IMG/VR virus record: IMGVR_UViG_2531839477_000013
DNA: 10,774 nucleotides
Source: a virus
Taxonomy: Duplodnaviria > Heunggongvirae > Uroviricota > Caudoviricetes
Direction: 5' to 3' (one strand)
In this document: one piece after another, positions 1,401-10,774 of the stretch
How positions within the stretch are numbered: position 1 is the stretch's first letter
Layout of the letters: each line of letters starts with the position of its first letter
The notes under the pieces: model-generated
Told to the model about the DNA's origin: nothing
The model's database searches: none
The model's input: only the letters and a program-made list of their open reading frames with translations
Made by a program: the position numbers and the translations under genes

Positions 1401-1808
1401 TTATTTTATTGATTTATTTTTACGCGCTTTAAGCATTTCTTCGAAGAGTTTGTTGAAGTTTTCTACTCTTGCGCGCATTTCAGACAGCAAGGCTTCCTGC
1501 TCGGAAGATGGAAGAGCATCGAATAATTCGATCAATTCTTTGTGGTTGGGAGTTAGCTCTGTTTCCACATGAAGTTCTTGTGCAGGCACTGGTGCCTTGT
1601 CTTCGTCACCAAACATTAGCCATGTAGGTGAGCACTTCAGAGCATCCGCTAAAGCAAACAATCGTTTTCCGACTGGCTGGGTTTCGTCTCTTTCCCATTG
1701 TGAAATTGTGACGTGAGCAACTCCAGCGAGGCGCGCGGCTTCTCGTTGTGTTAAGCGTAATTCTTTTCGTCGCGCCAGAACTCGCTGGCCCAGGGTTCTT
1801 GTATCCAT
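1401..1808 (-). CDS. dicA: DicA-type prophage repressor (HTH, cI/C2-like), 135 aa
   Basis: 135-aa ORF with an N-terminal HTH (LTQREAARLAGVAHVTISQWERDE) and a C-terminal ...MRARVENFNKLFEEMLKARKNK, closely resembling the K-12 DicA sequence I recall. Divergent from a cro-like gene. Confidence 0.92.
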   Translation of the reverse strand: MDTRTLGQRVLARRKELRLTQREAARLAGVAHVTISQWERDETQPVGKRLFALADALKCSPTWLMFGDEDKAPVPAQELHVETELTPNHKELIELFDALPSSEQEALLSEMRARVENFNKLFEEMLKARKNKSIK

Positions 1809-1889
1809 AGTTAGGTAATTCTAATTTTTCTTGACTTAGGTATCCCGCGCACAATAATGTTAGAAAAGTCTAACAAGAGGGGGGCTTTG
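1809..1889. promoter_or_regulatory. Divergent dicA/dicC promoter-operator region: operator TGTTAGA-aaag-TCTAACA at 1858-1875, degenerate site at 1809-1826, candidate sigma-70 promoter for dicC (TTGACT 1831-1836, AATAAT 1853-1858)
   Basis: Palindromes and promoter hexamers read directly from the sequence. The operator overlaps the -10/+1 of the rightward promoter, as expected for an OR-like switch. Confidence 0.55.
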
Positions 1890-2117
1890 ATGCTTAAAGT
1901 TGACGCAATTACTTTTTTTGGCAGCAAAACAAAGCTTGCCAATGCCGCAGGAGTGAGGCTGGCAAGTGTTGCTGCTTGGGGGATACTGGTTCCTGAAGGT
2001 CGCGCGATGCGTCTACAGGAGGCATCTGGCGGGGAGCTTCAGTATGATCCCAAAGTTTATGATGAATATCGTAAGACGAAGCGGGCGGGGCGGTTGAACA
2101 ATGAAAATCACTCCTGA
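1890..2117 (+). CDS. dicC: DicC (cro-like regulator), 75 aa
   Basis: Track ORF 1857..2117 begins at TTG. The ATG at 1890 is preceded by AAGAGGGGGG. Product MLKVDAITFFGSKTKLANAAGVRLASVAAWGILVPEGRAMRLQEASGGELQYDPKVYDEYRKTKRAGRLNNENHS resembles the K-12 DicC I recall. Confidence 0.88.
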   Translation: MLKVDAITFFGSKTKLANAAGVRLASVAAWGILVPEGRAMRLQEASGGELQYDPKVYDEYRKTKRAGRLNNENHS

Positions 2118-2622
2118 ACAGGCTCGTGAGGCTCTGGATGCCTGGATATGTCGACCAGGAATGACACAGGAGCAGGCGACGATATTAATCACTGAAGCAT
2201 TCTGGGCTTTGAAAGAGCGCCCGAACATCGATGTTCAGCGTGTCACAGATGAAGGTGGCGCGGTTGATCAGCGAGCGCTTGGTGTTAATCGAGTGAAGAT
2301 ATTCGAACGCTGGAAGGCTATCGACACCAGGGATAAGCGTGAAAAGTTCACGGCGCTAGTGCCTGCGATTATGGAGGCTATCCGGATTAGTGATTTCAGG
2401 TTGTATCGTGAAATTACTGACGGAAAAAGCATCACGTGCATGATCGCCGGGTTAAACAAAGAATATGGCGATGTGGTGGAGTCCGGACTGCTTTTTGCTG
2501 ATCCTGCCGTAGTGGATCGTGAAACTGACGAACTTATAGAAAAAGCAATTGCTTTCAAGCTTGCGTATCGACAGCAATACCAACAAAAAGCTGGATGGAA
2601 TTATGAGCCTTCTTTTTGCTGA
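2101..2622 (+). CDS. YdaT/YdfX-like early prophage protein (173 aa), function unknown (cII-position gene)
   Basis: 173-aa ORF. Its ATG overlaps the dicC 3' end by 17 nt, suggesting translational coupling. Family assignment is positional and from memory only. Confidence 0.7.
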   Translation: MKITPEQAREALDAWICRPGMTQEQATILITEAFWALKERPNIDVQRVTDEGGAVDQRALGVNRVKIFERWKAIDTRDKREKFTALVPAIMEAIRISDFRLYREITDGKSITCMIAGLNKEYGDVVESGLLFADPAVVDRETDELIEKAIAFKLAYRQQYQQKAGWNYEPSFC

Positions 2623-3568
2623 ACGCCCACTGGTTATAAACACGCAGCTGGCAATGAAAATTGGCTTAAACGAAGCCATTGTTTTGCAACAACTGCACTA
2701 CTGGTTGAGAGATACCAACTCCGGCATGGAATGTGATGGTGTTCGCTGGATTTATAACACAACGGAACAATGGCTGGAACAGTTCCCATTCTGGTCAGAG
2801 TCAACGTTAAAGCGCGCGTTTGCAAGTCTGAAAACGCTGGGGCTTTTGCGTTGTGAAAAGCTCAATAAATCAAAGCGCGATATGACCAATTTCTACACGA
2901 TCAACTATGGGAGCGAACTTTTAGATGGTGGCAAATTGAGCGAATCCATCGGTTCAAAATGCGCCGCTCCATCAGGTCAAAATGACACGATGGAAGAGGT
3001 CAAAATGAAACGCTCCATTGGTTCAAAACGACCCAATGTCATCGGGTCAAAATGGCCTGATGATCTTACAGAGAATACAACAGAGATTACTACAGAGAAT
3101 AAAAACACTTTTCGTCCGGAAGCTTCGCAACCGGACCCGCAGACGACTGAACAGGATTCTTTAACCCGGAACTCCGACGCGGTTGTGTTTAGTGCGAAAA
3201 AACGCCAGTGGGGTAGCAGGGAGGATTTGGCGTGTGCGCAGTGGATCTGGGGGCGGATCGTGGGTCTCTACGAACAGGCAGCCAGTGATGATGGCGAGAT
3301 CATGCGACCAAAAGAGCCTAACTGGACTGCCTGGGCCAATGACGTGCGCACAATGCGGATGCTGGATGGCAGAAGCCACAGACAAATTTGCGAAATGTTT
3401 GGTCGGGTTCAGCGAGATCCATTCTGGGTAAAAAACATCATGAGCCCGTCAAAGCTCCGCGAAAAATGGGACGAACTGGTCATCCGCCTGGGACGTTCAC
3501 CTGTACAGCGTTGTGTTAATCATATTTCTGAACCGGATACAGAAATTCCGCCTGGTTTCAGAGGATAA
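2603..3568 (+). CDS. Phage replication initiator: N-terminal winged-helix DNA-binding domain, iteron-containing linker, DnaT-like (primosomal protein I) C-terminal domain
   Basis: The ATG at 2603 (MSLLFAERPLVINTQLAMKIGLNEAIVLQQLHYWL...) is the first ATG; the track ORF starts at an upstream TTG at 2549. The C-terminus ...VNHISEPDTEIPPGFRG closely matches the E. coli DnaT C-terminus (...VSEPDSQIPPGFRG) as I recall it. Five iterons lie inside the gene, as in lambda O. Confidence 0.85.
   Translation: MSLLFAERPLVINTQLAMKIGLNEAIVLQQLHYWLRDTNSGMECDGVRWIYNTTEQWLEQFPFWSESTLKRAFASLKTLGLLRCEKLNKSKRDMTNFYTINYGSELLDGGKLSESIGSKCAAPSGQNDTMEEVKMKRSIGSKRPNVIGSKWPDDLTENTTEITTENKNTFRPEASQPDPQTTEQDSLTRNSDAVVFSAKKRQWGSREDLACAQWIWGRIVGLYEQAASDDGEIMRPKEPNWTAWANDVRTMRMLDGRSHRQICEMFGRVQRDPFWVKNIMSPSKLREKWDELVIRLGRSPVQRCVNHISEPDTEIPPGFRG
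2945..3054 (+). repeat. Replication origin iterons: five direct repeats at 23-24 bp spacing (2945, 2968, 2991, 3014, 3038), core GGT(T)CAAAA(T/C)G, followed by an A-rich tract with three ACAGAGA repeats (3068-3098)
   Basis: Repeats read directly: tccatcggttcaaaatg, tccatcaggtcaaaatg, tggaagaggtcaaaatg, tccattggttcaaaacg, gtcatcgggtcaaaatg. Their placement in the linker-coding region of the initiator gene parallels ori-lambda inside O. Confidence 0.75.
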
Positions 3569-3608
3569 GTGTTGATTTCAGGTCATGAGGTAATTTTAAG
3601 GGGGACTT

Positions 3609-4031
3609 GTGGCAAAAGTTTTTACACAAGAAGAGCGGGAAAAAATTAAATGGCAGGTGGTGGAACTCGTGCGCCAGAGCGGCCGTGAGACGTTACGGCA
3701 ACTGGAAGCTAAAACAGGTGCGACTAGATATCTGATGAGCGTTCTTGCCAGAGAGCTGGTAGCCAGTGGCGATGTATACAACTCCGGCTACGGGTTATTC
3801 CCCTCTGAACAGGCGCGTAAGGACTGGCAAAACGCCCGCAAAAAACTCTCGAGGGCAAAGGTGAAGAAACCTGCTGTGGTTGATCCGGACCTTATCTGGT
3901 CATCACCTGACGGAGAAATACGTCGCTACGACAGTCGCCTAAACATAATCTGTCGCGAGTGCCGGAAGAGCGAAGTTATGCAGCGCATACTGGCTTTCTA
4001 TCAGGGTAATTTTCAGGACGTGGCGCAGTGA
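3609..4031 (+). CDS. Hypothetical prophage protein (140 aa)
   Basis: GTG start at 3609 with a strong Shine-Dalgarno (AAGGGGGA) 5-12 nt upstream. The stop overlaps the next start (GTGA). No family recognised. Confidence 0.65.
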   Translation: MAKVFTQEEREKIKWQVVELVRQSGRETLRQLEAKTGATRYLMSVLARELVASGDVYNSGYGLFPSEQARKDWQNARKKLSRAKVKKPAVVDPDLIWSSPDGEIRRYDSRLNIICRECRKSEVMQRILAFYQGNFQDVAQ

Positions 4032-4474
4032 GTGCACCGGCAACCATTCTTGATATGTGCTGTGGCAGCCGCATGTTCTGGTTCGATAAGTCTGACAAAC
4101 GGGCGATATTCAGCGATATCAGAAAAGAAGGATACACATTACGCAATGGGAGACGCTTGATTATCAGCCCTGACATTATCGCAGATTTTCGTGCATTATC
4201 ATTTGCAGACGCATCTTTTTCGATGGTTGTATTAGACCCTCCGCATCTTGAGCGTGTTGGTGATAACGCCTGGATGGGAAAGAAATATGGACGGCTGAAT
4301 AAAGATGCCTGGCGTGATGATTTGCGACAGAGATTTAAAGAAGCTTTTCGGGTGTTGAGGTCGCACGGCGTTCTGATTTTTTAATGGAATGAAACGCAAA
4401 TACCGGTAAGCCAGATTCTGGCACTGACAGATAGAAAGCCTGTTATCTGTCAACGAACAGGGAAAAAACGATAA
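4028..4474 (+). pseudogene. SAM-dependent methyltransferase-like gene interrupted by an in-frame TAA at 4382-4384
   Basis: N-terminal motif-I-like ILDMCCGSRMF and motif-IV-like VLDPPH. After the TAA the same frame continues as WNETQIPVSQILALTDRKPVICQRTGKKR to a second TAA at 4472-4474. The track reports only 4028..4384. Confidence 0.55.
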
Positions 4475-4646
4475 AACCCACTGGATTATTTTTATGAAAG
4501 AGGCATCCAGTGAGTAGATTCGTAAGGTTACAGATACGTATATCTGAATAATTAAATTCAGTTCTGTAAATAAAACTTAATCCTTAACCGGATGGATTTC
4601 TGCACCCTCAGAACATCAGGAGGCCGCCCGAAAGGGCGGTAGTGAA

Positions 4647-4757
4647 ATGCGAAAGTTCAAAATTATTATTGAAACGGAAATAGCTGGTGGAGATTTTGAG
4701 GATGTATTCGAAGTGGACGATGACGCAACACCTGATGAAATTCATGACGGAGCATAA
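4647..4757 (+). CDS. Candidate small acidic protein (36 aa): MRKFKIIIETEIAGGDFEDVFEVDDDATPDEIHDGA
   Basis: Below the ORF-track cutoff. An AGGAGG at 4618-4623 is separated from the ATG by a GC-rich GAAA-tetraloop hairpin (4624-4639). Coding status unproven. Confidence 0.3.
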   Translation: MRKFKIIIETEIAGGDFEDVFEVDDDATPDEIHDGA

Positions 4758-4806
4758 GAAATTTTCTTTAACTACTGCAATTACTCATACCACGAAATAA
4801 AAGACG

Positions 4807-4998
4807 ATGAGGAAGAACAAAGTGGCTGATTTTTGTTCAGCTAAATATAACATCAGTTTTGAAGAGCGGGATGAACTATTAATGGACTATGGTGAATTAC
4901 GCGGTGGAAGTGCTGTTGATGTCGAATCCTAGCGTGATGACTATGAAGCGGGAAAAACTCCGGTCGAAGCATATTGTGATGAGTGGGGCGATGAATGA
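4807..4998 (+). pseudogene. Candidate small acidic protein ORF with an in-frame TAG at 4930-4932: MRKNKVADFCSAKYNISFEERDELLMDYGELRGGSAVDVES(*)RDDYEAGKTPVEAYCDEWGDE
   Basis: Frame read by hand. The terminal TGA (4996-4998) overlaps the ATG of the next ORF (ATGA). Weak Shine-Dalgarno. Confidence 0.3.
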
Positions 4999-5249
4999 GC
5001 GAGATTAATTATCAGGAAGGGCATGAAACGGCGGGGCAAGCAAAACCAGTGGCATGGCGATATCGCTACGTGAAAAAAGCGTTACGGACTTTCAGGGGAA
5101 GTAGTGGTCTGGTGACTGGAAATATGTACCGAAAAAAGAGGATTGTAACGACAGGCCGAACTATCAAATTCAGGCCTTATTCACTGCCTCACCAGTCCCG
5201 GTTACATCAGAAGAACTGGTTAAAGCTGTGCACTTTTATGAACAACTAA
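4995..5249 (+). CDS. Hypothetical ORF (84 aa), possibly a frameshifted remnant
   Basis: Track ORF. An overlapping alternative frame (5054-5281) reads like protein (WSGDWKYVPKKEDCNDRPNYQIQALFTASPVPVTSEELVKAVHFYEQLKRENPPTSGN) but is itself broken by a TAG at 5102-5104. Confidence 0.3.
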   Translation: MSEINYQEGHETAGQAKPVAWRYRYVKKALRTFRGSSGLVTGNMYRKKRIVTTGRTIKFRPYSLPHQSRLHQKNWLKLCTFMNN

Positions 5250-5535
5250 AACGCGAAAATCCACCAACATCCGGCAACTAGATTAATGGATTAACTATGT
5301 CGGTTAAACGACCAGCCAACTGAAAAAGCGGAAACCTGATTACAGGTTGCCAGATAAGGCAATGAGCTACCTGGCGCGGAACGGACTGATAAGTATGGGG
5401 AATGTTTTACGATGAACCTTTAGACTAAAGAGTTTGTAACGCTATGTAAGTGATTTTTTCTGGTTTAGATATTTATATGTCCGGCCAAATTGAGGTGTGT
5501 TTAAATGTAATTGCACATTGATTGTAGGAGGAATA

Positions 5536-5715
5536 ATGAAAAACGCATTGCAGTTTTTGTTTGTTGCGTTCTGGTTGTTCGCATCATGTATGCCCATCAT
5601 CTTCACAGCAAGGTATATGGAAAAAGTTGATGTTTTGATATTAATATTTGGATATATAAATGCCCTTTTTTTAGGGGTGTTCATGGCGGTCATGTGCATT
5701 GAATACTGGCGGTAA
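5536..5715 (+). CDS. Small membrane protein, two predicted transmembrane helices (59 aa)
   Basis: ATG at 5536 preceded by GTAGGAGG (5524-5531). Product MKNALQFLFVAFWLFASCMPIIFTARYMEKVDVLILIFGYINALFLGVFMAVMCIEYWR. The track ORF 5497..5715 begins upstream. Sits in markedly AT-rich DNA. Confidence 0.5.
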   Translation: MKNALQFLFVAFWLFASCMPIIFTARYMEKVDVLILIFGYINALFLGVFMAVMCIEYWR

Positions 5716-6049
5716 ATACAGCGAACTCCATTGGTTTAGTTGGATATTTACTGTGCTGGACAAAAACGGTTTGCGGGGAAATCTTAGTTAAGTAGAATGA
5801 CTGCGGGTGCTTGAGGCTATCTGCCTCGGGCATGGACACCAACGGCAGATAGAGAAAAGCCCCAGTTAACATTACGCGTCCTGCAAGACGCTTAACATTA
5901 ATCTGAGGCCAATTTCATGCTAGACACATGTAGGTTAGCCTCTTACGTGCCGAAAGGCACGGAGAAGCAGGCTATTGTTAACACCAAGCTGTAATGTCCC
6001 CTTTGAACCATTCAAAAATGTCCCCAGACAATTCTCTGGGGGATTTTTC

Positions 6050-7390
6050 ATGATCAAAGAGACTGTTACGATGAGTCATAAGGAACTCCACCGACTTCAG
6101 ATTATTCAGGAGTCAATTAATCGACATATTACTCAGGAACAAGCTGCGGCACGCATTGGCATTTCTATTCGGCAGGTTAAACGTCTGGTGCAACGGTATA
6201 GAAATGAAGGGCCTTCTGGTCTGGTTTCCCACCGACGTGGAAAGCGTCCTAATAATTCCTTTTCTACTGAATTCAGAGCAACAGTAATTTCACTCCTCAA
6301 AGGCCGTTACGCTGATTTTGGACCTACGTTTGCGTGCGAAAAATTGCGCGAGATACACGGTTTATCTTTATCCGTTGAAACTCTCAGAAAGTGGATGATA
6401 GAAGAGGGGTTATGGCGTGAACGCCGTCGTAAAATTGCCCGTATATATCAACGCCGCATGCGACGACCATCTTATGGTGAACTGATCCAGATTGATGGCT
6501 CACCTCATGACTGGTTTGAAAATCGAGGCCCCAGATGTACACTGATCGTTTTCATTGATGATGCCACCAGTGCGTTGATGGCGTTGCGTTTTGTGCCTGC
6601 TGAAACAACCCGGGCTTACATGGAAACCCTCCGGGGTTACCTTAATGATCATGGCGTACCGCTCGCTCTCTACTCTGATAGACACAGTATATTCAGGGTA
6701 AATAACCCAGAGCGGGAAGGTGAGCTGACCCAGTTCACTCGTGCGATAAAGACACTGGGCATCGAGCCAATCCATGCCAACAGCCCGCAGGCAAAAGGGC
6801 GGGTAGAGCGCGCCAATCAGACACTACAGGACAGGCTGGTCAAAGAAATGCGGCTTCAGAATATCAGTGATATTGAAACAGCAAATGCATGGTTGCCGAC
6901 CTTTATTGAAGCCTATAACAACCGGTTCGCTACGTCGCCTCGTACTACTGATAATGCTCATCTTGATGTGCACCATTCTGAAGAGGAACTGGGTTATATC
7001 TTCAGCCTACAGGCGAAGCGCGTTCTGTCTAAAAATCTCACTTTCCAGTACAAAAGCAGTGCGTTTCAGGTACGCAGTGAGAGCCGGGGATATCGACTTA
7101 GGCATTCGGTTGTTACTGTATGCGAGAACTTTGACGGTGAAATTAACGTTCTGTATGACGGGAAAGCGCTGGGCTGGGAAAAGTATGTTGATGGCCCGGA
7201 GCCTATACCACTGGATGATGAAAAGAGTGTCCATGAACGAGTGGATAATGCCCGTATTGATTTACGCTCAAAATACTATGTTAAACCTAAAGCTGACCAT
7301 CCCTGGCTTACGCGCCGAACGCAAAGTCATCAGCAAGTTAAGCCCCCGAAGTTACCTAAAAAGAAGCCTGATCCCGATAAAAAAGATTGA
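6050..7390 (+). CDS. DDE transposase-like protein of the rve (integrase core) type, N-terminal HTH, 446 aa; IS481/ISNCY-like
   Basis: First in-frame ATG at 6050 after a GGGGGA Shine-Dalgarno (track ORF starts at TTG 5975). Catalytic-looking residues IQIDGS, LYSDRHS, GRVERANQTL. Probably the full-length counterpart of the intK fragment I recall in K-12 Qin. Element boundaries not identified. Confidence 0.82.
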   Translation: MIKETVTMSHKELHRLQIIQESINRHITQEQAAARIGISIRQVKRLVQRYRNEGPSGLVSHRRGKRPNNSFSTEFRATVISLLKGRYADFGPTFACEKLREIHGLSLSVETLRKWMIEEGLWRERRRKIARIYQRRMRRPSYGELIQIDGSPHDWFENRGPRCTLIVFIDDATSALMALRFVPAETTRAYMETLRGYLNDHGVPLALYSDRHSIFRVNNPEREGELTQFTRAIKTLGIEPIHANSPQAKGRVERANQTLQDRLVKEMRLQNISDIETANAWLPTFIEAYNNRFATSPRTTDNAHLDVHHSEEELGYIFSLQAKRVLSKNLTFQYKSSAFQVRSESRGYRLRHSVVTVCENFDGEINVLYDGKALGWEKYVDGPEPIPLDDEKSVHERVDNARIDLRSKYYVKPKADHPWLTRRTQSHQQVKPPKLPKKKPDPDKKD

Positions 7391-7786
7391 AACCAAGATC
7401 GATTCGGTTGAGTGCATATCCATTCATAGGGTAGATTCTTAAGTCGCGTTTCTGGTGTTCATTTTCGGGTGGTTTGTTACTTGTTTTACCGGGGATATGC
7501 CAGAAACGCGCTGAGTCAGTCTGGGCGGTGCGCGTAATGAGGCGTTATGGTAAATAGCCTATGCTAATGTCCGCTAAGAGCAAGAAGCGGAAGTTGGCAG
7601 TTTTGTGGACTGTCCCCACAAAAGTGACTACAGAAATAGTTGCAATTCATAATTGATCATGGGTTGTCAGTTAAACTCGTAGCGATTTAAATAGACTAAT
7701 TGGGAGTGCGTCCATTACTTATATCTTGTAATGTTAACTATCAGAAATGATACAAAGATAATATGTCTTTAAAGAAAAGGCTGATG

Positions 7787-7812
7787 GCGAAAAGTGGCCC
7801 GATGAGGGCCAC
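7787..7812 (-). terminator. Probable intrinsic terminator of flxA
   Basis: On the minus strand, stem GTGGCCC / GGGCCAC (plus 7794-7800 and 7806-7812) with a 5-nt loop, followed by CTTTTCG, 15 bp after the flxA stop. Confidence 0.55.
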
Positions 7813-7826
7813 AATACGGCTGTCAC

Positions 7827-8159
7827 TTAGACGTAAATATCAATGGTGCCAGCGGTATTTGTATCGTCTTTTTTCTCTTCTTTTTTATCAGGCTGAACTG
7901 TCGCGTCTTCATTCTTTTTCTCTGCCTGCTGCCTTAACAACTGCTCCAGTTGAGCCCAGAGGCTTTCAATTTGCTTCTGTACCAATGCAGCCATTTCTTT
8001 TTTCTGCTGTGTCGTCATCCCCTCTTCCGATGAGATTTTCCCAAGCTTTTCAGTCAGCACCTGAATTTGTCTTGTGATTTTGGCTATTTCTGATGTTCCT
8101 TCCGGGGCGGAGTTGTTTGAAATAACGGTTGAGGTATTTCCCTGAATTGTGACAGACAT
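7827..8159 (-). CDS. flxA: FlxA (sigma-28 dependent prophage protein), 110 aa
   Basis: 110-aa ORF MSVTIQGNTSTVISNNSAPEGTSEIAKITRQIQ..., matching FlxA as I recall it. AAGGAG Shine-Dalgarno 7 nt upstream of the ATG. Confidence 0.9.
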   Translation of the reverse strand: MSVTIQGNTSTVISNNSAPEGTSEIAKITRQIQVLTEKLGKISSEEGMTTQQKKEMAALVQKQIESLWAQLEQLLRQQAEKKNEDATVQPDKKEEKKDDTNTAGTIDIYV

Positions 8160-8182
8160 AGATTTCTCCTTTTAAAAAAGCA

Positions 8183-8209
8183 CTATCGGCATGAACAAAA
8201 AAATCTTTA
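8183..8209 (-). promoter_or_regulatory. FliA (sigma-28) promoter of flxA
   Basis: Minus strand reads TAAAGATT-N11-GCCGATAG, a close match to the sigma-28 consensus TAAAGTTT-N11-GCCGATAA, placed about 25 nt upstream of the flxA ATG. Confidence 0.8.
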
Positions 8210-8361
8210 ATCGTATTTCTTGTGTCATTAATTGTTTGATGTTCAGATTGTTTTCCTCGCGGGCTGGCGCGCCTCAGAAAGTAAAGCTTGTTGACAGGGG
8301 TAAACGTTCGGCAATAATTTTCTGCCGCATGCGGGTGTTGCATAAAACGTGTTACGTTCCT

Positions 8362-8667
8362 TTATCGACAGGTCAGGTCACCGCTCACCCGCCGACGAGA
8401 AAGCAACACTGACATGCTAAAGCAAAAAATAGATGAATAAGTTGAGTTGTGCATATGTAGCCTGACCGTCACAAAGTATATGGTGTCTGTACCAGTAAGA
8501 TGATGGCCGGACTCTTTAAAAACGAGCTGACCTGCACAATACAGGATGGACTTAGCAATGGCTGCTCCTGGCAGAAAGCGGACAGTGATCACCGTTCTTA
8601 CGACTACTTTCTGACTTCCTTCGTGACTTGCCCTAAGCATGTTGTAGTGCGATACTTGTAATGACAT
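8362..8667 (-). CDS. YdfV-like hypothetical ORF (101 aa), doubtful
   Basis: ORF length matches the 101-aa ydfV I recall between flxA and relB in K-12. The sequence has no recognisable features and its 5' end overlaps the relBE promoter-operator. Confidence 0.3.
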   Translation of the reverse strand: MSLQVSHYNMLRASHEGSQKVVVRTVITVRFLPGAAIAKSILYCAGQLVFKESGHHLTGTDTIYFVTVRLHMHNSTYSSIFCFSMSVLLSRRRVSGDLTCR

Positions 8668-8680
8668 TTGTAATTACAAG
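8628..8680 (+). promoter_or_regulatory. relBE promoter and operator: TTGCCC (8628-8633), 17-bp spacer, GATACT (8651-8656), operator repeats CTTGTAATGACATTTGTAATTACAAG (8655-8680)
   Basis: Hexamers and the TTGTAAT/ATTACAA palindrome read directly. Position immediately upstream of relB fits the autoregulated relBE operator. Confidence 0.65.
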
Positions 8681-8691
8681 AGGTGTAAGAC

Positions 8692-8931
8692 ATGGGTAGC
8701 ATTAACCTGCGTATTGACGATGAACTTAAAGCGCGTTCTTACGCCGCGCTTGAAAAAATGGGTGTAACTCCTTCTGAAGCGCTTCGTCTCATGCTCGAGT
8801 ATATCGCTGACAATGAACGCTTGCCGTTCAAACAGACACTCCTGAGTGATGAAGATGCTGAACTTGTGGAGATAGTGAAAGAACGGCTTCGTAATCCTAA
8901 GCCAGTACGTGTGACGCTGGATGAACTCTGA
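8692..8931 (+). CDS. relB: RelB antitoxin (79 aa)
   Basis: Product MGSINLRIDDELKARSYAALEKMGVTPSEALRLMLEYIADNERLPFKQTLLSDEDAELVEIVKERLRNPKPVRVTLDEL is near-identical to K-12 RelB as I recall it. Its stop overlaps the relE start by 1 nt. Confidence 0.95.
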   Translation: MGSINLRIDDELKARSYAALEKMGVTPSEALRLMLEYIADNERLPFKQTLLSDEDAELVEIVKERLRNPKPVRVTLDEL

Positions 8932-9218
8932 TGGCGTATTTTCTGGATTTTGACGAGCGGGCACTAAAGGAATGGCGAAAGCTGGGCTCGACGGTACGTG
9001 AACAGTTGAAAAAGAAGCTGGTTGAAGTACTTGAGTCACCCCGGATTGAAGCAAACAAGCTCCGTGGTATGCCTGATTGTTACAAGATTAAGCTCCGGTC
9101 TTCAGGCTATCGCCTTGTATACCAGGTTATAGACGAGAAAGTTGTCGTTTTCGTGATTTCTGTTGGGAAAAGAGAACGCTCGGAAGTATATAGCGAGGCG
9201 GTCAAACGCATTCTCTGA
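8931..9218 (+). CDS. relE: RelE toxin (mRNA interferase), 95 aa
   Basis: Product MAYFLDFDERALKEWRKLGSTVREQLKKKLVEVLESPRIEANKLRGMPDCYKIKLRSSGYRLVYQVIDEKVVVFVISVGKRERSEVYSEAVKRIL matches RelE as I recall it. Confidence 0.95.
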   Translation: MAYFLDFDERALKEWRKLGSTVREQLKKKLVEVLESPRIEANKLRGMPDCYKIKLRSSGYRLVYQVIDEKVVVFVISVGKRERSEVYSEAVKRIL

Positions 9219-9289
9219 ACCAAAGCATGACATCTCTGTTTCGCACCGAAGGTGACACTTCTGCTTTGCGTTGACAGGAGAAGCAGGCT

Positions 9290-9445
9290 ATGAAGCAGCA
9301 AAAGGCGATGTTAATCGCCCTGATCGTCATCTGTTTAACCGTCATAGTGACGGCACTGGTAACGAGGAAAGACCTCTGCGAGGTACGAATCCGAACCGGC
9401 CAGACGGAGGTCGCTGTCTTCACAGCTTACGAACCTGAGGAGTAA
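9290..9445 (+). CDS. hokD: HokD (RelF) Hok-family membrane toxin, 51 aa, below the ORF-track cutoff
   Basis: Hand translation gives MKQQKAMLIALIVICLTVIVTALVTRKDLCEVRIRTGQTEVAVFTAYEPEE with TAA at 9443-9445. A typical Hok sequence, in the expected place after relE. Confidence 0.9.
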   Translation: MKQQKAMLIALIVICLTVIVTALVTRKDLCEVRIRTGQTEVAVFTAYEPEE

Positions 9446-9467
9446 GAGACCAGGCGGGGGAGAATCC

Positions 9468-10774
9468 CATAAGCGCTAACTTAAGGGTTGTGGTATTACG
9501 CCTGATATGATTTAACGTGCCGATGAATTACTCTCACGATAACTGGTCAGCAATTCTGGCCCATATTGGTAAGCCCGAAGAACTGGATACTTCGGCACGT
9601 AATGCCGGGGCTCTAACCCGCCGCCGCGAAATTCGTGATGCTGCAACTCTGCTACGTCTGGGGCTGGCTTACGGCCCCGGGGGGATGTCATTACGTGAAG
9701 TCACTGCATGGGCTCAGCTCCATGACGTTGCAACATTATCTGACGTGGCTCTCCTGAAGCGGCTGCGGAATGCCGCCGACTGGTTTGGCATACTTGCCGC
9801 ACAAACACTTGCTGTACGCGCCGCAGTTACGGGTTGTACAAGCGGAAAGAGATTGCGTCTTGTCGATGGAACAGCAATCAGTGCGCCCGGGGGCGGCAGC
9901 GCTGAATGGCGACTACATATGGGATATGATCCTCATACCTGTCAGTTCACTGATTTTGAGCTAACCGACAGCAGAGACGCTGAACGGCTGGACCGATTTG
10001 CGCAAACGGCAGACGAGATACGCATTGCTGACCGGGGATTCGGTTCGCGTCCCGAATGTATCCGCTCACTTGCTTTTGGAGAAGCTGATTATATCGTCCG
10101 GGTTCACTGGCGAGGATTGCGCTGGTTAACTGCAGAAGGAATGCGCTTTGACATGATGGGTTTTCTGCGCGGGCTGGATTGCGGTAAGAACGGTGAAACC
10201 ACTGTAATGATAGGCAATTCAGGTAATAAAAAAGCCGGAGCTCCCTTTCCGGCACGTCTCATTGCCGTATCACTTCCTCCCGAAAAAGCATTAATCAGTA
10301 AAACCCGACTGCTCAGCGAGAATCGTCGAAAAGGACGAGTAGTTCAGGCGGAAACGCTGGAAGCAGCGGGCCATGTGCTATTGCTAACATCATTACCGGA
10401 AGATGAATATTCAGCAGAGCAAGTGGCTGATTGTTACCGTCTGCGATGGCAAATTGAACTGGCTTTTAAGCGGCTCAAAAGTTTGCTGCACCTGGATGCT
10501 TTGCGTGCAAAGGAACCTGAACTCGCGAAAGCGTGGATATTTGCTAATCTACTCGCCGCATTTTTAATTGACGACATAATCCAGCCATCGCTGGATTTCC
10601 CCCCCAGAAGTGCCGGATCCGAAAAGAAGAACTAACTCGTTGTGGAGAATAACAAAAATGGTCATCTGGAGCTTACAGGTGGCCATTCGTGGGACAGTAT
10701 CCCTGACAGCCTACAAAACGCAATTGAAGAACGCGAGGCATCGTCTTAACGAGGCACCGAGGCGTCGCATTCTT
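9468..10774 (+). mobile_element. IS186 (IS4 family), left end at 9468; right end lies about 30 bp beyond the window
   Basis: The sequence from CATAAGCGCTAACTTAAGGGTTG (9468-) matches the IS186 left terminus as I recall it. The window ends inside the element just before the expected right inverted repeat. Inserted 22 bp after the hokD stop in a GC-rich site (GGCGGGGGAGAATCC). Confidence 0.88.
9523..10635 (+). CDS. insL: IS186 transposase (IS4 family, DDE), 370 aa
   Basis: ATG at 9523 (track ORF starts at GTG 9517). Product MNYSHDNWSAILAHIGKPEELD... with the IS4-family Y-x2-R-x3-E-x6-K motif (YRLRWQIELAFKRLK). Confidence 0.9.
   Translation: MNYSHDNWSAILAHIGKPEELDTSARNAGALTRRREIRDAATLLRLGLAYGPGGMSLREVTAWAQLHDVATLSDVALLKRLRNAADWFGILAAQTLAVRAAVTGCTSGKRLRLVDGTAISAPGGGSAEWRLHMGYDPHTCQFTDFELTDSRDAERLDRFAQTADEIRIADRGFGSRPECIRSLAFGEADYIVRVHWRGLRWLTAEGMRFDMMGFLRGLDCGKNGETTVMIGNSGNKKAGAPFPARLIAVSLPPEKALISKTRLLSENRRKGRVVQAETLEAAGHVLLLTSLPEDEYSAEQVADCYRLRWQIELAFKRLKSLLHLDALRAKEPELAKAWIFANLLAAFLIDDIIQPSLDFPPRSAGSEKKN

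Follow-up and report, generated by a model that had tools for sequence, protein, structure and literature searches.

Position of IS186 behind hokD

We analysed a stretch of 10,774 nucleotides from the IMG/VR virus record IMGVR_UViG_2531839477_000013 (Caudoviricetes), referred to here as the window, which is part of a Qin-like lambdoid prophage. The subject is a copy of the insertion sequence (IS) IS186 that lies behind the toxin gene hokD (also called relF), the last gene of relB-relE-hokD. An earlier note on this DNA had placed the IS 22 bp after the hokD stop codon; the coordinates are exact, with the stop at 9443–9445 and IS186 from 9468. The genes and features around the junction are as follows.

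8692–8931, plus strand: relB, from the list of open reading frames (ORFs); annotated in the near-identical loci L003 and L008
8931–9218, plus strand: relE, from the ORF list; annotated in the same two loci
9290–9445, plus strand: hokD, 51 aa, intact, identical to the annotated hokD coding sequence
9443–9445, plus strand: hokD stop codon TAA
9446–9467, plus strand: 22-nt spacer GAGACCAGGCGGGGGAGAATCC between the hokD stop and IS186
9453–9461, plus strand: 5' arm GGCGGGGGA of a stem-loop, from folds of the uninterrupted allele
9462–9464, plus strand: GAA loop of the stem-loop, from the same folds
up to 9467, plus strand: 3' arm of the stem-loop, of which only the first 3 nt (TCC) stand left of IS186
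9468–9490, plus strand: IS186 left inverted repeat CATAAGCGCTAACTTAAGGGTTG, 23 bp, starting directly after the spacer
9468–10774, plus strand: IS186 in left-to-right orientation, 100% identical to K-12 IS186A
9517–10635 (annotated start equivalent 9523), plus strand: intact IS186 transposase ORF, IS4-family match

The IS part of the window (9468–10774) is identical to K-12 IS186A at 1307 of 1307 nt; copies of IS186 are nearly all identical to one another. The element is 1339 bp long, and its final 32 nt (CAGATGGTTCAACCCTTAAGTTAGCGCTTATG) fall outside the window, together with the right inverted repeat and the right junction. IS186 belongs to the IS4 family (PGAP uses the label 'IS421 family'), and its transposase ORF scores 133 bits against the IS4-family model NF033592 of NCBIfam (cut-off 115). 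The transposase gene and hokD are on the same strand. The left junction reads ...GAATCC/CATAAG (the slash marks the first base of the IS), and from the junction register across loci a 10-bp target duplication is predicted as GGGAGAATCC, with its left copy at 9458–9467. The hokD coding sequence shows no differences from hokD (WP_000813254.1) in L003, L008 and L001, and its match to the NCBIfam Hok family is 48.5 bits, below the cut-off of 73. The three genes are co-transcribed as one mRNA, relBEF (PMC3598666), of which the relF (hokD) portion is normally the most abundant part after cleavage (PMC3598666).

The uninterrupted hokD 3' region

Many IS-free genomes align to the window at 99.7–99.8% up to 9468 and then continue without IS186. 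The 22-nt allele of the window is found without the IS in strain 400660 (L008), where the relBE-hokD-rem context is the same and the sequence agrees with window 7682–9467 at every base. In the empty sites, the hokD stop is followed by a stem-loop with a 9-bp stem, in which GGCGGGGGA pairs with TCCCTCGCC around a loop of GAA or GAAA. Further downstream are a homologue of fbi (CCTCAACGCACCCGC, complementary to the 5' end of hok mRNA) at +49 to +63 after the stop and an intrinsic terminator (AACCCGCTTCGGCGGGTTTTTG) at +68 to +85. The insertion point lies after the third base of the 3' arm and divides the stem between 9467 and 9468. IS186 also pushes the fbi homologue, together with the sole intrinsic terminator of relB-relE-hokD, 1.34 kb downstream. 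None of the three elements is found directly downstream of hokD, and neither the fbi homologue nor the terminator occurs in the window up to its end. The GC-rich DNA that was described as adjoining the left end of the IS is one side of the split hairpin. The suggestion that the native 3' end of the hokD mRNA is truncated or replaced also holds: the comparison with uninterrupted 3' regions was run, and the native region does not end before 9467, since the stem-loop, fbi homologue and terminator of the relatives reach well past it.

Based on locus L001, which keeps the 5' half, a full-length hokD-type mRNA was rebuilt by removing the IS and one repeat copy. In its minimum-energy fold, nt 1–14 (GCGGGUGCUUGAGG, tac) pair with nt 376–390 (the fbi homologue), the 9-bp hairpin stands right after the stop and the terminator is at the end of the RNA, which is the classical hok architecture. 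The uninterrupted hokD 3' untranslated region folds at -37.5 kcal/mol (z -2.6), a value that none of 200 shuffles reached, whereas the IS186-interrupted 3' sequence folds no better than shuffles (z -0.4). The empty locus has one terminator-like site after hokD; on the plus strand of the window there is no such site from 8500 until a weak one at 10523. In the hok gene of plasmid R1, control is known to work through tac/fbi pairing and 3' processing (PMC9841398). There, single substitutions disrupting CG pairs of the post-stop stem abolish the processed mRNA, and they were recovered as loss-of-function suppressors of toxicity (PMC9841398).

The hok 3' hairpin as a target of IS186

The IS186 target consensus is 5'-GGGG(N6/N7)CCCC in the form in which PMC6925257 quotes it. 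The empty site GGGG-GAGAAT-CCCT matches it at seven of the eight positions (CCCT, not CCCC), and with the IS in place the window has only three positions with at most one mismatch to the consensus, one of them at 9456 (GGGGGAGAATCCCA). Junctions were compared across loci; the orientation of IS186 relative to hok, the distance from the stop codon and the target-site duplication (TSD) are given below.

K-12 hokC: right-to-left, 22 nt after the stop, TSD GGAGTGATCC
hokC of strain 4/2-1: left-to-right, 22 nt after the stop, TSD GGAGTGATCC
hokC of strain 1409 (L011, NZ_CP063369; IS186 at 1766–3104): left-to-right, 22 nt after the stop, flanking copies differing by one base
K-12 hokE: left-to-right, 21 nt after the stop, TSD GGAGTAATCC
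Chromosomal Hok/Gef gene (L009): left-to-right, 22 nt after the stop, TSD GGAGAAATCC
Plasmid hokD-like gene (L010): left-to-right, 22 nt after the stop, TSD GGAGAGATCC
Prophage sok-hokD loci L001 and L004: left-to-right, 23 nt after the stop, TSD GGGAGAATCCC (both junctions read in L001, the left junction only in L004)
relBE-hokD of LR-03 and RM10410: right-to-left, 23 nt after the stop, 11-bp TSD GGGAGAAATCC
relBE-hokD with a mosaic hokD, EH10-18-47: right-to-left, 22 nt after the stop, 10-bp TSD GGAGAAATCC

A TSD is seen at all comparable loci, and the TSD sequences differ between loci. Both orientations of IS186 are found at hokC and at relBE-hokD. The register of the window junction (...ATCC/CATAAG) is that of the 10-bp-duplication junctions (hokC, hokE, L009, L010 and EH10-18-47). 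Including the window, at least eight distinguishable events or junction types occur at one homologous position. Among 5426 complete genomes, IS186 is present in 2197 (8487 left ends in total), and a hok/IS186 junction in the orientation of the window is found in at least 1017, counts which include shared descent. Two of the three K-12 copies of IS186 sit behind hok genes; the statement in the earlier note that hokC and hokE of K-12 are flanked in the same way is borne out, the IS lying in the homologous place, 22 and 21 nt behind the respective stop codons. The hok 3' hairpin is a recurrent hot spot of IS186, as had also been proposed.

In the hokC locus of strain 1409, the left flank of IS186 is GGAGTAATCC, equal to the K-12 hokE duplication, and the right flank is GGAGTGATCC; the unequal flanks suggest either an exchange between the hokE and hokC copies of IS186 or a point mutation. 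A second target within the same 0.5 kb is seen in a sister prophage (L002, NZ_CM194533), where IS186 lies at 12423–13761, about 480 bp further downstream and after rem, in another GC palindrome (GCGGGGCTGAACTCCCGC) with a 10-bp duplication, GGCTGAACTC.

The hairpin is polymorphic across a sample of 25 relBE-hokD loci that includes the window; three hairpin alleles are GGCGGGGGAGAAT..., GGCGGGGGAGAAAT... and GGCGAGTGAGAAAT.... The K-12 type (GGCGGGGGAGAAAT...) is found in 10 of the 25 loci. About half of the loci have no G-run (GGCGAGTGA...); the GGCGAGTGAGAAATCCCTCGCC allele, which lacks the G-run and has a perfect 6-bp stem, accounts for 11 of the 25. The GAGAAT-type allele of the window is rare, being shared by only one of the 24 others (L008). 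Every IS186-occupied relBE-hokD allele seen has the G-run, and the GAGTG allele without it may be a poor target of IS186.

Origin of the insertion

IS186 very probably transposed in place into its preferred target, the GC-rich palindrome 3' of the hok reading frame (GGCGGGGGA-GAA-TCCCTCGCC). This origin is favoured because an identical empty allele exists in the same context in strain 400660, and because the junction is one base off that of the only other loci with this allele. The title of Sengstag et al. 1986, as cited in PMC3562002, refers to IS186 duplications of variable length at one target. An insertion in place predicts that the right junction would read ...GTTAGCGCTTATG/GGGAGAATCCCTCGCCACCTCTGATGTG..., followed by the terminator ACCCGCTTCGGCGGGTTTTT and rem, with GGGAGAATCC duplicated; beyond the right end of IS186, GGGAGAATCCCTCGCCACC... 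and the remainder of the hokD 3' region would be expected. The right flank of the L001/L004 type reads ...GGGTTTTGTTTTTTCCTAGC, without rem.

Several observations weigh against an insertion in place. The right junction is outside the window, so the target duplication of this copy is not visible. The combination of relE-hokD, the GAGAAT allele and a left-to-right IS does not occur among the 5426 complete E. coli genomes. This exact arrangement is also absent from the GTDB species representatives and the JGI metagenome contigs, which were scanned with an exact junction pattern and with a flexible-junction relE-hokD-IS186 pattern that does match the window, and IS186 follows hokD in none of 20 long contigs obtained with two window proteins, both of them common (6238 and 7180 blocks). 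The 22-nt flank is also the allele of the hokD::IS186 loci L001 and L004, which leaves room for import by recombination. All functional consequences at this locus are inferred. A broader statement, that no complete genome has relBE-hokD::IS186, was rejected: a search with the predicted right junction found three, in the opposite orientation.

If IS186 and the 22-nt flank had instead come from another hokD::IS186 locus, through homologous recombination or gene conversion, a candidate donor would be a Qin-like prophage variant with a complete sok-hokD locus (PSS-08-1, 2013C-4991), with a left-hand exchange in the hokD coding sequence, which is identical in both, and a right-hand one in IS186 or in prophage DNA further downstream. 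Such a route agrees with the near identity of window 9276–10774 and L004 (no mismatches and one 1-nt gap), with a flank allele (CCAGG...GAGAAT) that is rare in relBE-hokD (one of 24 others) and yet is that of L001 and L004, with the presence of both locus types within one genome (2013C-4991) and with the PSS-08-1 copy lying in a Qin-like prophage at the same chromosomal position. We nevertheless consider it improbable: the junction is TCC/CAT in the window and TCCC/CAT in all seven closest genomes, and a donor is unnecessary when strain 400660 has the rare allele uninterrupted, with identical sequence over the preceding 1.8 kb. The identity of the IS itself does not discriminate, as IS186 copies hardly vary. 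The one-base difference in the junction also makes a misassembly very improbable, in which relBE-hokD-rem and sok-hokD-IS186, sharing an identical 170-bp hokD sequence, were misjoined from short reads. The window does end inside IS186, and repeats are where contigs commonly break off; the arrangement has no second example in the collections searched, and genomes with both locus types exist. However, a chimera from a known sok-hokD::IS186 locus would have TCCC/CAT, and the TCC/CAT of the window is in no other sequence found; the register is that of the 10-bp-duplication junctions, and genuine relBE-hokD::IS186 in three complete genomes makes the arrangement biologically ordinary.

Concerning the recurrence of IS186 behind hok genes, it could be driven mainly by selection for toxin silencing and not by target preference, with insertions that destroy the 3' stem, fbi and the terminator being kept as they disarm hok and leave the reading frame untouched. 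The share of K-12 copies behind hok genes (two of three) and of IS186-bearing genomes with such a junction (at least 1017 of 2197) can be read in this way. Breaking this stem abolishes toxicity in R1 hok (PMC9841398), and behind gef/hokC, IS186 is presumed to interfere with fbi and with the normal processing of the mRNA (PMC3562002). We regard this as doubtful, since every occupied site matches the independently defined IS186 target well and IS186 is also found in the nearby non-hok GC palindrome after rem of the same prophage. The counts are moreover inflated by shared descent, the hok regulation of relBE-hokD is already dismantled, leaving little to select against, and the IS is found in only 3 of about 1165 relBE-hokD genomes. 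Target preference explains the recurrence first and can suffice by itself, and selection for toxin silencing may add to it; the hairpin polymorphism makes the two testable against each other.

The ISEsa1–relBE unit at the 5' side of hokD

The sok, mok and tac elements are not directly upstream of hokD in the window but 3.3 kb further upstream. The features concerned are as follows.

5786–5975, plus strand: tac, mok start and sok region of the ancestral hokD locus (its 5' half, now detached), from the Rfam sok match and identity to L001
5961–5975 and 9277–9291: 15-bp direct repeat GGAGAAGCAGGCTAT, the left copy at the end of the hok 5' half
5976–9276, plus strand: ISEsa1 (IS1202-family) unit of 3301 bp with transposase, ydfW, flxA, ydfV, relB and relE

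The 5' half shares 92% identity with the sequence that precedes hokD in L001, and the Rfam sok match (5805–5976) scores 104 bits. The right copy of GGAGAAGCAGGCTAT spans the Shine-Dalgarno sequence of hokD and the first two bases (AT) of its start codon. The unit begins with TGTTAACACC... and ends with ...GCGTTGACA, the two ends matching as inverted repeats at 22 of 30 positions, and its transposase is of the ISNCY/IS1202 type (466 bits). An alternative right end at 7595, where homology to pMS7884B stops, was rejected, as no inverted repeat stands there (7 of 30 positions); 9247–9276 was preferred because it matches the left end at 22 of 30 positions and adjoins the right copy of the 15-bp repeat. 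The unit appears to be split in pMS7884B, with about 11 kb between its relE end and its ISEsa1 transposase end. K-12 lacks the sequence of window 2381–7205, and with it the hok 5' half and the left end of the unit.

Comparison with loci L015, L018 together with L022, L016, L017, L019, L047 and L048 shows the unit, both in the chromosome and on plasmids, at the Shine-Dalgarno sequence and start codon of at least four distinct hok genes, with matching 15-bp duplications on both sides in three. The plasmid cases are the following.

pEnt261: unit 98.9% identical, GGAGAAGAAGGCCAT on both sides, same position of another hok gene
pSH12_Vir: GGAGAAAAAGGCTAT on both sides, same position of another hok gene
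IncHI2 plasmids: larger variant of the unit, left side in pENT-8a4, right side in pGW1, pGMI14-002_1 and a Serratia plasmid
Citrobacter IncFII plasmid: unit at hok, left side only

The relE end of the unit is found at 99% identity or more on 736 plasmids from many genera, 678 of which cover at least 80% of the query. ISEsa1 is catalogued in ISfinder as 1609 bp with no detectable duplication (PMC10132070); other members of the IS1202 family make 15–17-bp repeats. Our literature search found no paper linking ISEsa1 with relE or hok.

Taken with the IS186 insertions, these data make it likely that hok genes are landing pads for two unrelated ISs and that the relB-relE-hokD (relBEF) operon is a product of this. 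An ISEsa1–relBE element with TGT...ACA ends would insert site-specifically at the hok Shine-Dalgarno sequence and start codon with a 15-bp duplication, and would place relBE before an intact hok frame; IS186 would separately target the 3' stem. If this is true, the catalogued limits of ISEsa1 are wrong and relBE of E. coli is a passenger of a hok-targeting transposon, which would explain why no duplication had been detected before. In the window, the transposon-like unit is still flanked by the two halves of the ancestral hokD locus, which offers a concrete, testable origin of relBEF. For annotation, hokD here is to be read as separated, upstream and downstream alike, from all hok regulatory elements. 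This unit is a side finding of more interest than the IS186 insertion and deserves its own follow-up.

In plasmids of Providencia and Salmonella (L020 and L021, position 3746), what adjoins the right end of the unit (...GCGTTGACA) is the non-hok sequence CCCTCTGATTTAGAC..., with IS26 upstream and with IS5 (L020) or the IS21-like ISSen3 (L021) downstream; this flank reflects either a different target or a later rearrangement.

Expected consequences for hokD expression

Since the stem is split and the terminator has moved 1.34 kb downstream, read-through into IS186 and loss of the 3' protection of hokD are to be expected. Transcripts of relBE-hokD would run on into IS186, sense to the transposase, without the protective 3' stem and the terminator; the hokD part of the mRNA would be less stable and HokD output lower. 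The read-through may raise transcription of the IS186 transposase. The fold-back control between tac and fbi, which the earlier note had connected with the insertion, is not what IS186 removes here, because the ISEsa1–relBE unit had already detached the hok 5' half: the 5' partner (tac, mok and sok, at 5786–5975) was cut off by the 3.3-kb unit.

Comparison with known systems

The insertion in the window belongs with those of IS186A at hokC (gef) and IS186B at hokE in K-12, and is a new instance at a known hot spot rather than a new kind; as the hot spot has been known since these two were described, the insertion itself is of little weight. The element is the same, the homologous GC-rich hairpin is hit (22 and 21 nt after the stop) in the register ...ATCC/CATAAG, and the fbi homologue and the terminator are displaced in all three. 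The K-12 targets have the form GGGG-N6-CCCC, whereas that of the window matches the consensus at seven of eight positions, with CCCT for CCCC. The K-12 genes also keep their sok, mok and tac 5' halves beside the toxin gene, unlike hokD of the window, and the orientation of IS186 at hokC is opposite to that in the window. IS186 at gef/hokC is presumed to interfere with fbi and with processing, the transcript presumably ending within the IS (PMC3562002).

The loci of LR-03, RM10410 and EH10-18-47 share the relB-relE-hokD context and the hairpin position with the window, and both of their junctions are visible; in LR-03 and RM10410, rem follows IS186. Their IS orientation is opposite and their hairpin alleles are different (GAGAAAT, or a mosaic hokD), and these events are therefore independent of that in the window. 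At lon, according to the parts of the literature quoted in PMC6925257 and PMC3861542, IS186 likewise prefers a short GC-rich palindrome, with repeated independent insertions at one site; there the promoter is lost, whereas in the window the mRNA 3' stem and the terminator are lost. The stem mutants of R1 hok (Le Rhun et al. 2022, PMC9841398) destroy the same post-stop GC stem, with exposure to 3'-5' exonucleases being the expected effect. Those are single substitutions in a complete hok/sok locus studied experimentally, whereas the window has a 1.3-kb insertion behind a hokD transcribed from the relBE promoter and is known from sequence.

Prophage setting

Loci near-identical to the window are annotated with dicB, ydfA-C, dicC-type, replication, flxA, ydfV, relB, relE and hokD genes. 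The window differs from both of its closest complete-genome relatives (L003 and L008) at 2917, 4361, 4916, 5033 (a 1-nt insertion), 6014, 6475 and 7681, and its lineage is therefore absent among the 5426 complete genomes searched. The DicF small RNA is found at 305–356 on the minus strand (Rfam, 76.7 bits), which confirms the Qin-like prophage context; in relatives, DicF is followed by dicB and ydfD.

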